The position numbers and the translations under genes are program-made. The notes under the pieces were generated by a model. The model made no database searches. It saw only the letters and a program-made list of their open reading frames with translations, and was not told the origin of the DNA. DNA of 58,729 nt, filler included, from Sphacelaria rigidula (taxonomy: Eukaryota), in NCBI GenBank assembly GCA_964200075.2. It is 5 parts of 5 records of this genome, joined end to end, with 100 filler letters (N's around TTAATTAATTAA, not from the genome) between each part and the next. Parts side by side here need not be neighbours in the genome. Positions count along the whole stretch, not along the records: positions 1 to 11,667 come from CAXNAA020004645.1; 4 more parts are not named here. The stretch is one strand, 5' to 3'. Positions 8,101 to 54,735 of this stretch are shown here, piece by piece; position 1 is the stretch's first letter, and the number at the start of each line of letters is the position of its first letter.

Positions 8101-10313
8101 CTGTACCATGAACATATTGTCGAGCGGGAACCCGGTCTCGGCGCAAAAGTCCCTCGCGGCGTCTACCGTGCCCAGACTCACGCCCACCACTCCGACCCCA
8201 GCATCATCTATCTGCGGCAGGTAATGTCGTAGCTTTTGGGCGTATTCCCTATGCTCAAGCAGGACGAACGACGGGCATTAATACACCAGCGTCGAGGGAC
8301 AAGCCAAGAACACACAGCAGACCCAATTATACGATTTGTTGAGTCAAGGGAATTGTGCACACGCCGCACAGGGAAGCATGATCATCGTCCTTGAGGGTCT
8401 GTGGCCAGCACCGAACAGCATTCCTGTCGGGGTGAAACATGCCTCTAGGTGTGCTCAGCTGTACAACCCCAAACCTCACGCTATGAACTTCTTGCCGGAT
8501 TGACCCGACGTAACAGAGCACCAGGACGAATTCGCGAAATTTTTACCGTATCAGTCGCACTTTTGTAATTTTCTTCACAGAATGGTAATCGTATCGGTGA
8601 CAATTTTGCAAATATTTCACAAAATAATCATCAAAATGATGCAATCCTGGGTACAGACCAGAAAATATCAACAGTGTAAATTGTGCAGATGATAACGTTT
8701 TGGCATACTTGCGGATGGAATACGAACGTACAATAGCAAGGTCCGGGCTGATTAGATGCGTGTGCTATGCTTTCTTTGTCCAACCAGGTGGGCACGAGAA
8801 GTCTCAGTACCACCTCACTAGACAGCCTACTCAGGATTGGATGTCGGCATGACGCGATGTTGTGCGATCTATTTCAAACCACAACAACCAGTGTCCCTCG
8901 TGTAGCTTTCATTGCGTTGCCTATCCACTCAGAAGTCATGCTGGTCAGGAATTTCCCAGACGCACCAGATATTCATGAGTTGAGTACCTTTTTGCGTTTG
9001 TCAAACCGGACGTGATTGCATCAGTTTTCAAGCGGTGTAGGTACCGCGCCTTCCAAACCAGCTGCACGAGGACGTGAAAATCTGTAGTGTCGCAAAGTGT
9101 GCTTTGAAAGCCCATTATTCGCAAAAAATTGTACCGGTGCGGTTCAGCGTACAATTTCCTCTGTCACTACTCAAGACTGAAATCCACAGTTCAGCTTTGG
9201 CATCTATCTCACAAAAACCACGCGGATATCGGCCTCTGCGAAGCAGCCGTAAGGCTGCTCTGTTCTACCGCATCACCAGAACAAGTAAATCTGCCAGCGC
9301 AACTGCACTGTGTTTCCGGTACATACTCGGTATCTGTCGACGCTCACCAGGAATTGAAATCTGCAGTGTGAGTGAAGAAGGCAACGATGGTCTTCTTGCC
9401 TGGCGAAGCCACCCATGCGTCCACGAGGCTTATCTCATCCCCATTCGAGGCTCGTTTCACCTTACAGCCACGCAGCACCTGTTCTCCGGGGACAACCAGA
9501 ACACATGTACATCGCACAGAAAGATCCACGATCGCAGCACCTGATATCATCCACAAATGATATTTTTTAGCCCTCGAAGATCCCACTCACCGAAAGAAGC
9601 CGGCGAAATGTTCACAGGTGTTGATTTATGTGATGTTGGAGGATAGAAGGGGGTGTTATACTCCGTCATATTGAGAAAGGGAATGGAGGGTACAGTGCCG
9701 TGAGCACATCAGCTCAAGGCCCACAATTCGACGACGACAATCCATCCTCCCCCAAAGCTCCAACTACTGCACAAAACATACTACCATTACAACTGTACGC
9801 ATACCTGATGGGAGTCCGAATGTATTTGCCTCTCAGATTATCGCCCAGATCTCATGCAACATCTTCAAGTTTCTGATATGACCTCGTTGTGCTGACTGCC
9901 TGTATGTATGTACTTTGTAGATTACCGAACTGCTGACGAGGCCGTAACGGTTTGGTTTCGTCCGTCTGTATGTAATGGTACTCTCTTTTATTGGTGCCGA
10001 CAGCCCCTTAAGTCCTGAAAATATAGCGTGGTATCCCTACCCCTTCATTGGTTACCTCATAGGTATCGGCAGATGTTTGCTTGTTCAACCCTGTCGTCGC
10101 CGACATGATCGTCACGCGTACGTTCTGACGGTTACTGCGGCAGTAGCTGCCCGCAGCCCGACCAGCTGGGATCATCGTAGGAACAAAAGCTGTTCGGTCA
10201 CCGCCATGATGACTAACGATAGGCTGCACAAAAGCAGACGCGGGAGAGATAATATTCCGTGTGTTTGCCAGCAAGCTCGCGATGGATAGCAGGGTAGCTC
10301 CTGGAGACGGCAT
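5182..10313 (-). CDS. Plastid-targeted peroxiredoxin-like protein (AhpC/TSA_2, PRXL2-like), complete, 7 exons, 331 aa
   Basis: Exons 10313-10056, 9478-9348, 8248-8107, 7264-7146, 6688-6667, 5928-5665, 5241-5182 total 996 nt, all GT-AG and phase-compatible. Motifs THTADFNSWEYAQKL, FCAETGFP, NPYLRLLPMLAGIGSPGTIQAVLRGYVGD, RPLELATLRLQNM, TQQGGTVVF, DKGIL. N-terminus contains ASAF. Confidence 0.9.
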
Positions 10314-10801
10314 GGCTGAGTAGTCATGCAGGGATGTGAATCCTCGGATCTACTGGGCGTCCATGTATGCATGGCAATAGAGTATGCGGGACAGTTGGGA
10401 AAATGAGTGGATTTTTATTGCGTGGTGATTCATCGATATGCTATTTGTGTTCCTCATACTACATTCATCCTCAATTTTCGATTACCTGGAGATCAGATGT
10501 TGCGTAGGCAATCCAACTCTGCAAGTTTGATCTCGTACACCCATGATTAGGCGTGGGGACAGGGGAAATGTAGGGGATCTAGTAATGTAGGAAAACGGGT
10601 ATTGGCGACATTGAAACGAATGTGGTGTTGAAAAACGCAGACTATTTTATCTCGCAAAGCGCCCACACAAGCAAGGACGGCGGGCCTTATGTCTCTCGGC
10701 ACGGAGAACCTTGTGCATCCTGGCGCTAGTCACTGTGATTGACATAAGCATCGGAAATCTGAGACTGCATTCAGCGCGGTTCAATACGAGGCGCTTGTTT
10801 G
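10314..10801. promoter_or_regulatory. Putative bidirectional promoter region
   Basis: ~0.5 kb between divergent start codons (10313 minus; 10802 or 10853 plus). Function inferred from geometry only. Confidence 0.5.
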
Positions 10802-10852
10802 ATGCCGAAGATATCGGAATACTACCCAGCTTGCAGGGTGCATGTCAGCACC

Positions 10853-11478
10853 ATGGCGCTGGTTGTCTCCGCTGTTGTGCTGCTGCTGCTTGCGCAAGCC
10901 GTGCCGGCTGCTAGCGGAGGTCGGGATTCCAGGAAAGGGTGAGGGGGAACCGCCTTCAATTTCCTGGATGGTGCGAGATTCTGTGCCCGAATAGGATGCA
11001 CTGAGAAAACGGGATGGTCAGTTCGAAAGGACCCTGCGGTGATGGGTTGGGATTTATCCTCGGTGACACAGTTCAGCTAGCGTGTGATGGGTTAGGATTT
11101 GTCAGCTTGAACTTGTTAGAGTGCACATCTGGAATATCCACCTTTTCCGGGTGCATGGCCTACCAGATATTGCTGATGCTCACCTGTGGTTGGTTTACGT
11201 AAGCGCATCGCAAAGACCGATGCTATTTACTACTAAACCTCATATAATTCAGTACCATAGATATCATGGAGACCCGTTTGTTTGACCGCTACACTCCTCT
11301 TTGCAATCGCCCCACTCGTGATTTTTGTAGGTACGATGCTGAGCTCTCTCTATTTTCGCCGGAGGGCAGATTATATCAGGTGGAATACGTGATGAAAGCC
11401 GTCGGGCAGTACGGCTGTCCCTCGGTGGGGGTGCAGGGAGAGGGCTGTAGCGTCGTCGTCTGCAAGAAGAATTTGCCG
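10853..11478 (+). CDS. Divergent 20S proteasome alpha subunit (alpha1/PSMA6-like) with N-terminal signal peptide; first two exons, truncated by contig end
   Basis: Exon 10853-10938 ([30 protein letters not shown]|gtgagg; in-frame upstream ATG at 10802) joins in phase 2 to exon 11331-11478 ([25 protein letters not shown]...[19 protein letters not shown]|gtgagt). [12 protein letters not shown] is the proteasome alpha signature. Confidence 0.85.
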
Positions 11479-11608
11479 GTGAGTGATGGTTTGTGCGGTT
11501 CACCGTTCGATCACCACGCAAGATCTGGTAAAAAGTGATCCGCGGCCAAAATTGCTCACGGATCGGATATACAAATTGGAGGAGGAAATGTTCCGGATCA
11601 AATCCTGA

Positions 11609-11667
11609 GCCGGTCGCCCCGGTGGCTCAGTTGGTAACCTCGTAACCTTCTGATGGTTGAGTTGGGG
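11609..11667 (+). mobile_element. tRNA-derived SINE head in proteasome-gene intron, truncated by contig end
   Basis: GCCGGTCGCCCCGGTGGCTCAGTTGGTAACCTC identical to the start of the copy at 54402. Confidence 0.75.
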
Positions 11668-11767
11668 NNNNNNNNNNNNNNNNNNNNNNNNNNNNNNNNN
11701 NNNNNNNNNNNTTAATTAATTAANNNNNNNNNNNNNNNNNNNNNNNNNNNNNNNNNNNNNNNNNNNN
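11668..11767. other. Artificial contig linker
   Basis: 44 N + TTAATTAATTAA (stops in all six frames) + 44 N. Confidence 0.98.
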
Positions 11768-12004
11768 GGGTGGGGAGGCTAATTGGTTGGTTAACTTGGC
11801 CTGGATTATCCCCGGTTCCCCCCCCCCCCCCCCCCCCCCCCGCCCCGCCCCCTCCCTCAACTCAGTGCTGAAAGCCTTACTGCCAGATATGTTCCTCGCA
11901 TCTACCGGTGCTGAGCACTCATACAGATTTCCTAGAAAACCTCACCGGACTGCCAGTGCACGTGTTATCGTGAAGGTTAAGACATTTTGAACTGATCGTC
12001 CCAC

Positions 12005-46964: not shown

Positions 46965-47064
46965 NNNNNNNNNNNNNNNNNNNNNNNNNNNNNNNNNNNN
47001 NNNNNNNNTTAATTAATTAANNNNNNNNNNNNNNNNNNNNNNNNNNNNNNNNNNNNNNNNNNNN
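46965..47064. other. Artificial contig linker
   Basis: N44-TTAATTAATTAA-N44. Confidence 0.98.
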
Positions 47065-54401: not shown

Positions 54402-54735
54402 GCCGGTCGCCCCGGTGGCTCAGTTGGTAACCTCAGAACCTTCTGACGGTGGGGTCGAGGGTTCAAATCTCGGAGCGATCTGGAATTTTTTTCACACCAT
54501 GCCGAACAGTGGAGAGCGACTATGTCGTAGATACACAAAATTCGACTTAACGGTTGACGAAGGAAAGGGTCTTCTGAACTTCTCTCGCTATAAAAAAAGA
54601 CAAGCACCGCAGGAAGAAGGTGGAGCACTAAAAACCATTAAAAAAGAAGAAGCTTCTGTGTTGACTTTCCTCTTGTGTGACCCCGGCTGGTACGCCAACA
54701 TACACCGAAAGGTGTAGACTGACGTCCCGAATAGA
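54402..54735 (+). mobile_element. Apparently full-length tRNA-derived SINE
   Basis: A box TGGCTCAGTTGG, B box GGTTCAAATC, unique body, 3' tail shared with 23253-23360. Confidence 0.8.

Follow-up and report, generated by a model that had tools for sequence, protein, structure and literature searches.

Protein turnover in the periplastidal compartment, the reduced remnant of a red-algal endosymbiont's cytoplasm, is a standing question. Diatoms have only a partial, cap-less 20S set in this compartment. According to PMC3101018 (Moog et al. 2011), in P. tricornutum alpha2, two alpha7, beta2, beta3, beta6, and beta7 are predicted to be periplastidal, and all five of these subunits that were tested as green fluorescent protein (GFP) fusions localized there. 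According to PMC5756292, cryptophytes retain a 26S-type particle, the “heterokont” periplastid proteasome proteins are described on diatom data, and haptophytes and apicomplexans are said to have no periplastid proteasome. Here, we analyze a 58,729-base stretch of the genome of the brown alga Sphacelaria rigidula (the window) and identify, at positions 10802 to 11478 on the plus strand, the start of an expressed nuclear gene that codes for a divergent paralogue of the 20S subunit alpha1 (PSMA6/SCL1 type) with a predicted cleavable signal peptide. Because the protein begins with a secretion-type signal peptide, it probably acts outside the cytosol, within the endomembrane system or the periplastid space.

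The brown-algal protein has its closest known counterparts in the diatom periplastidal 20S subunits (PMC3101018). Both are nucleus-encoded ochrophyte 20S core subunits with a signal peptide, the residue behind the predicted cut is not aromatic, and in both cases the parent complex is otherwise purely cytosolic or nuclear. The brown-algal protein differs from the diatom subunits in being of the alpha1 type, in its lineage, in having no visible transit-like extension, in the acidic insert of ∼120 residues present in its relatives, and in that its location is a prediction only. The cryptophyte periplastid proteasome, which is partly nucleomorph-encoded and partly imported (PMC5756292) and was compared by description only, is likewise a proteasome in a relic red-algal endosymbiont cytoplasm. 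Human PSMA6 and yeast SCL1 are the best sequence and fold matches; they share with the family the N-terminal signature, an equal length of the mature tail before the YD motif, and the same clade. By contrast, the family has a signal peptide where the canonical proteins have only an initiator Met, YDA in place of YDR in the window, and a long disordered insert.

The evidence that the leader and the alpha domain belong to one protein comes from spliced transcripts. Four of 11 sequencing runs were examined for this stretch (X5, X6, X7, and X9). Three of them, X6, X7, and X9, belong to a single study and carry a guessed RNA label; the spliced form is what backs their RNA nature. In each of these three runs, one long contig (2540, 2267, and 2236 nt at depths of 137, 170, and 121 in X6, X7, and X9, respectively) joins position 10938 to position 11331 and thus skips intron 1 (10939 to 11330, 392 nt, GT..AG). 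Run X5 resembles low-depth DNA and covers both borders of this intron unspliced. The first donor reads GAAAGG/gtgagg after 10938, and the pyrimidine-rich acceptor reads tttttgtag/G before 11331. The contigs start at 10644 (X6), 10678 (X7), and 10789 (X9), and with 10644 as the furthest 5' contig end the 5' untranslated region (UTR) extends from 10644 to 10801. The coding part of exon 1 (10802 to 10938) ends in phase 2 (GG), and exon 2 (11331 to 11478) supplies the last base of this Gly codon and 49 further codons ending in KKNLP. The spliced frame reads as a hydrophobic leader, then ..GGRDSRKG, and then an alpha-subunit N-terminus. Exon 2 matches Pfam PF10584 (Proteasome_A_N) with an E value of 9.7e-12 and 44.8 bits against a cut-off of 27.7 and comprises the alpha-subunit N-terminal signature and the first core strands. 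Thus, the in-frame fusion of a leader to an alpha-subunit N-terminus and the 10938/11331 junction, both proposed by a sequence-only reading of this DNA, are confirmed by the spliced reading and the PF10584 match. The first exon that it called is also in use, and none of the contigs in the runs examined has a different first exon.

Two ATGs are in frame with the alpha domain. The context of the ATG at 10802 is weak (tgtttgATGc), that of the ATG at 10853 is strong (agcaccATGg), and an in-frame stop at 10760 lies upstream of both. With both ATGs ahead of the hydrophobic core and no ATG in exon 2 that could serve as a start in front of the signature, a protein with the alpha signature must start with the leader. 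An ATG near 11266, within intron 1 and sharing the frame of exon 2, was dismissed as a start because splicing removes it in all three RNA contigs. Eight unnamed gene-model fragments in the protein database have an Arg before YD and a Val after the end of the exon; because these are the residues expected if the same two borders (AG/G and GT) had been left unspliced, the intron positions appear to be conserved. Separately, the 5' UTR contains an out-of-frame upstream open reading frame (ORF) of 17 codons (10689 to 10742), another out-of-frame ATG lies at 10842 between the two in-frame starts, and in the window as well as in two Ectocarpus models an in-frame ATG stands exactly 17 codons ahead of the Met that opens the core. 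With this upstream ORF and the extra ATGs, start choice on the alpha transcript may be regulated.

Counted from the second ATG, the signal-peptide-like leader comprises 21 residues (10853 to 10915), in which a hydrophobic core is followed by Pro-Ala-Ala-Ser; the linker GGRDSRK together with two bases of the Gly codon (10916 to 10938) gives a predicted mature N-terminal tail of eight residues before YD. The best 13-residue Kyte-Doolittle hydropathy of the leader is 3.12, a value reached by only 7 of 399 Met-started open stretches of 46 residues in the six frames of the window, the leader's own stretches included. The leader is, therefore, beyond chance expectation. All six full-length relatives have the same leader architecture: in the seven full N-termini (the window and six species), the 13-residue hydropathy maximum is 2.15 to 3.12 and ends 11 to 16 residues before YD. 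In the family alignment, not a single leader column is invariant and invariance starts at Y32/D33; the leader is kept as a feature while its sequence drifts. Since it has been retained from before the split between brown algae and Phaeothamnion, the leader is arguably functional.

Signal cleavage sites have small residues at −3 and −1, and we used this rule to read the cleavage site. In the window, the predicted cut falls after Ser21 or after Ala19. In each of the seven N-termini, position −1 is G or S and position −3 is A, T, or V, and in five of them position −4 is Pro; by core hydropathy and these small residues, all seven would carry an N-terminal signal peptide. In all seven, 7 to 8 residues lie between the predicted cut and YD, in line with the very short distance from leader to mature domain originally noted for the window gene. 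This is the normal length of an alpha1 tail: among 120 canonical alpha1-like proteins, the tail before (Y/F)D is 3 to 9 residues long in 119 and eight residues long in 77, and none of the 120 has a hydrophobic leader. The signal peptide thus appears, in effect, to take the place of the initiator Met on an otherwise complete alpha1. Entry into the endoplasmic reticulum (ER), as predicted from these features, is well supported.

Among the seven alpha types, the family is closest to alpha1/PSMA6 in both sequence scores and phylogeny. In the PDB, alpha type-6/PSMA6 scores 147 bits and yeast alpha1/SCL1 scores 125 bits, ahead of all other alpha types (≤96 bits). An IQ-TREE phylogeny was calculated from 247 columns and 38 rows picked from search returns, i.e., 9 family members, 19 labelled canonical alpha1 proteins, and 10 further alpha proteins, two of which served as outgroup and three of which fell in the alpha1 clade; the bootstrap was short of full convergence. 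The family forms one clade (100/100) inside the alpha1 clade (100/99). Its branching point within alpha1 is not settled by this tree, which was built without red-algal, nucleomorph, or stramenopile canonical alpha1, and the relic symbiont-type origin put forward in the sequence-only reading finds no support in it. Within the family, Phaeothamnion branches off before Discosporangium and the crown brown algae, which is the order of the species.

The family stem is long (1.01 changes per column), and identity to 91 canonical alpha1 rows is 33 to 41%. Of 97 columns that are ≥85% conserved in these 91 rows, 23 are replaced and 37 are kept across all family rows, in agreement with the initial description of the alpha domain as divergent. 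The replaced columns include the R of YDR, G100, K194, Q76, and K78, which are 98 to 100% conserved in the canonical rows; at the R of YDR, the window and seven of the nine family rows have A. The conserved residues of a housekeeping alpha1, including the YDR gate motif, are thus not preserved as a set. Because 23 of 97 conserved columns are replaced, we consider the protein a divergent paralogue and not a housekeeping alpha1. The replacement pattern suggests a paralogue under new constraints and, going by this pattern only, the window gene is unlikely to be the sole alpha1.

A proteasome (Ntn-hydrolase) core fold is predicted for the relatives. The window itself is cut after 49 core residues, and PF00227 is precomputed for all family members. 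In a model of the Cladosiphon member based on a 107-row alignment, the core has a predicted local distance difference test (pLDDT) score >90, residues 6 to 18 form a low-confidence N-terminal helix, and residues 224 to 330 are disordered and lie between two core helices. A model from a 9-row alignment had a pLDDT of 38 and was discarded. In Foldseek, the Cladosiphon model matches 20S alpha chains with a template-modelling score (TM-score) of 0.85 to 0.90, including the alpha type-6 chains 8qz9_G and 1iru_A. Full-length family members have 394 to 412 residues, and the six full-length relatives have a disordered acidic insert of ∼120 residues, which would be accommodated in the loop between two core helices. 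In solved 20S structures, this loop is on the outside of the alpha ring.

The nearest relatives of the window gene are in brown algae, as expected from an alga with a complex plastid. A HMMER search against 1.84 billion representatives gave 323 matches at E ≤0.001, in which a top group of 10 matches has 73 to 82% identity and the next matches have ≤62%; a word-index search with the 49-residue exon as query, in which longer proteins were wanted, gave zero matches. The named members are from Cladosiphon okamuranus (409 residues), Nemacystus decipiens, Pylaiella littoralis, Scytosiphon promiscuus, Ectocarpus fasciculatus, Ectocarpus sp. 6, and E. siliculosus, the model of the latter beginning within the leader and being annotated as “Proteasome Alpha Subunit family member”. 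Partial members are from Ascophyllum nodosum, Discosporangium mesarthrocarpum, Ectocarpus sp. 8, and Phaeothamnion confervicola. Of the 49 residues of exon 2, crown brown algae and the unnamed fragments resembling the family share 36 to 40, Discosporangium shares 33, and Phaeothamnion shares 30; four canonical alpha1 proteins share 25 to 30. Among the best 120 of 1126 profile matches, we found no family member outside brown algae and Phaeothamnion. The 20 canonical alpha1 matches that were named come from green algae, amoebae, euglenids, a haptophyte, and others, with no brown alga, red alga, or diatom among them. A metagenome scan kept 80 loci with a best identity of 44% and no family member; two of these loci were inspected, of which L002 encodes a canonical alpha1 and L003 appears to be archaeal. 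The protein atlas returned generic proteasome clusters only. The family sequences are already public, one of them with a generic annotation, and full-text literature searches found no description of a signal-bearing proteasome subunit in brown algae.

In these algae, the ER is continuous with the outermost plastid membrane. We suggest that the leader drives co-translational entry into the ER and that signal peptidase cuts 7 to 8 residues before YD, leaving a tail as long as that of cytosolic alpha1; we regard this step as likely. The protein would then cross the periplastid membrane into the periplastidal compartment and join a reduced, cap-less 20S core such as that known from diatoms, a step whose chances we judge to be close to even, if anything slightly below. 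Taken as a whole, the proposed route ending in the periplastidal compartment is evenly balanced between being right and wrong. By analogy, this compartment would be the leading candidate destination because diatoms send 20S subunits there. At +1, the window is predicted to have G or A and its relatives A or R; provided that the predicted cut is correct, this residue is neither aromatic nor Leu. A non-aromatic +1 residue is described for periplastidal proteins in PMC3101018 and PMC12136025 (ASAFind 2), and this background, as well as that on the diatom 20S subunits, had been stated correctly in the sequence-only reading. PMC12136025 further describes periplastidal presequences as having both charges, with a positive net charge being unnecessary; G, A, or R at +1 and the mixed charges in the family fit this description. 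In PMC3101018, cytosolic-type proteins with a signal peptide were accepted “irrespective of the lengths” of the transit-like part, which otherwise had to comprise “several amino acids”.

Several observations weigh against a periplastidal alpha1 subunit. No transit-peptide-like extension is visible in the seven N-termini, in which the post-cleavage stretch before the mature domain is only the 7 to 8 residues of a normal alpha1 tail, and the cleavage site itself is a rule-based reading. The RNA evidence is limited to one study, and 78 to 95 residues of the alpha protein are visible in the window. Neither the best 120 of 1126 profile matches nor the metagenome scan contained a family member from diatoms or other algae with a verified periplastidal proteasome, and alpha1 is not on the diatom periplastidal list in PMC3101018. 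Finally, ∼55% of periplastidal predictions localized to the compartment in PMC3101018, and ASAFind 2 has a recall of 25% for periplastidal proteins (PMC12136025). Because of this prediction success and this recall, sequence cannot settle the destination.

Because a transit-like stretch is not visible, the ER lumen is a real alternative, as the sequence-only reading had also held. The protein could be a soluble proteasome-fold protein of the ER or chloroplast-ER lumen, or a secreted one, that acts outside the 20S particle in a new role and for which the insert and the extra cysteines are adaptations. The signal peptide without a discernible transit-like stretch is as expected from such a protein, as are the strong divergence (replacement at 23 of 97 conserved columns, the R of YDR among them) and the 7 to 10 cysteines in each relative; moreover, about one-fourth of the periplastidal candidates in PMC3101018 entered the secretory pathway and stopped short of the periplastidal compartment. 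By contrast, all five GFP-tested diatom subunits in that same source were periplastidal. A ring-forming core is predicted with high confidence and 37 of 97 alpha1 columns are kept in all rows, and the six full-length relatives have neither a KDEL-type ER-retention tail nor a conserved N-glycosylation motif. To our knowledge, no eukaryotic 20S subunit has been described as ER-lumenal or secreted, which also counts against this explanation, and on balance we find it somewhat unlikely. If the hydrophobic segment were not cleaved, it could instead serve as an N-terminal anchor in the membrane of the ER or chloroplast ER, with the alpha1-like domain tethered on either the lumenal or the cytosolic side. 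When read from the second ATG, the window leader has no charge before the core, a net positive stretch after it, and an uncharged run of ∼19 residues, and several relatives would have N-regions of 17 to 30 residues if the first ATG were used, all of which would suit an anchor. However, all seven leaders end in a cleavage-type motif with small residues at −1 and −3, and with Pro at −4 in five; in most relatives, positive charges precede the core in the style of a classical signal peptide; and the hydrophobic cores are mostly 12 to 15 residues, which is short for a membrane span. A membrane anchor is, in our view, improbable.

Two further explanations would do without targeting altogether. No canonical brown-algal alpha1 turned up in our searches, which were not designed for finding one, and the gene could, therefore, be an ordinary cytosolic alpha1, with no second alpha1 gene, whose leader is removed or ignored and has no targeting role. 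It is difficult to reconcile this idea with a leader conserved in all seven N-termini despite sequence drift, with the stem of 1.01 changes per column and the loss of G100, K194, Q76, K78, and the R of YDR, with the disordered insert of ∼120 residues, or with the tails of 3 to 9 residues in 119 of 120 canonical proteins, none of which has a leader; we consider it very improbable. That the leader is an artefact, i.e., a chance upstream open frame or a mis-assembled or nonproductive transcript, might be argued from the guessed RNA label and the origin of the three runs in a single study. An identical GT..AG junction at depths of 121 to 170 in three runs and the retention of the intron in the DNA-like run speak against an artefact, as do the same architecture in independent gene models of six other species and the same two intron borders implied by the eight database fragments. 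We regard an artefact as extremely improbable, and the ordinary-alpha1 and artefact explanations have jointly a probability well under one-tenth.

The window consists of five pieces of ∼11.67 kb each that are joined by N44-TTAATTAATTAA-N44 linkers (11668 to 11767, 23435 to 23534, 35200 to 35299, and 46965 to 47064). Because the alpha gene sits at the very end of piece 1, it is truncated at 11667 and two coding exons are visible. Intron 2 starts at 11479 (donor TTGCCG/gtgagt after 11478) and is cut by the end of the piece at 11667. Past 11478, the contigs carry 30 letters that are foreign to the window and read in frame as DDLVYPESVS, corresponding to the next residues in relatives (DDLVYPDSVT and similar), and we, therefore, conclude that another exon is located elsewhere. 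In tblastn searches with one family member and two canonical alpha subunits as queries, none of the five pieces contained further proteasome exons. Upstream of the alpha gene, the terminal exon of a neighbour gene lies at 10054 to 10232, where RNA-like contigs of 1.9 to 2.5 kb end in three runs. Because the alpha transcript begins only ∼410 bp away from this exon, a common promoter region may serve both genes.

Intron 2 also contains, outside the protein, a tRNA-like high-copy repeat (11607 to 11667, plus strand), of which a second and full copy lies at ∼54404 to 54490. It has a tRNA-type head, a T-arm-like box (GGTTC..A.TC), and then a run of T, and neither ARAGORN nor Rfam recognizes it. Its summed contig depth is 55,000 to 180,000 in all four runs vs. 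120 to 170 for the neighbouring exons, and it is, therefore, either very high-copy or highly expressed. The repeat looks like a short interspersed nuclear element. Piece 2 starts with a long poly-C/CCG-rich tract (11815 to 11860), followed by exons of a family-2 glycosyltransferase on the minus strand (11945 to 13064), with PF00535 and PF13641 above their cut-offs on 11945 to 12421 and PF00535 just under its cut-off on 12333 to 13064. An open frame of 480 codons that is rich in Ser and Pro (13184 to 14626) lies upstream of these exons. Outside the window, positions 1 to 1950 of the metatranscriptome contig L002 contain two intron-less ORFs on the same strand ∼320 nt apart. One is the canonical alpha1, the other is presumably V-ATPase subunit E, and L002 derives from a compact eukaryotic genome.

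If the protein is periplastidal, the relic proteasome known from diatoms (PMC3101018) would be present in another major lineage of ochrophytes as well and would gain a subunit type that the diatom list lacks. If it is imported, a presequence this short would test what the periplastid import machinery recognizes. If it is ER-lumenal, a proteasome-fold protein would be present in a compartment where none is known. Our broadest proposal, which we offer as doubtful and rather unlikely in its full form, is that an alpha1-type periplastid 20S subunit unreported in diatoms has been retained in brown algae and their sister lineages, which would be imported by a minimal presequence in which the signal peptide is fused directly to the mature gate tail, and whose acidic disordered loop possibly substitutes for the missing 19S cap or for a docking partner; or else, that these algae have the first 20S-type subunit of the ER or chloroplast-ER lumen.

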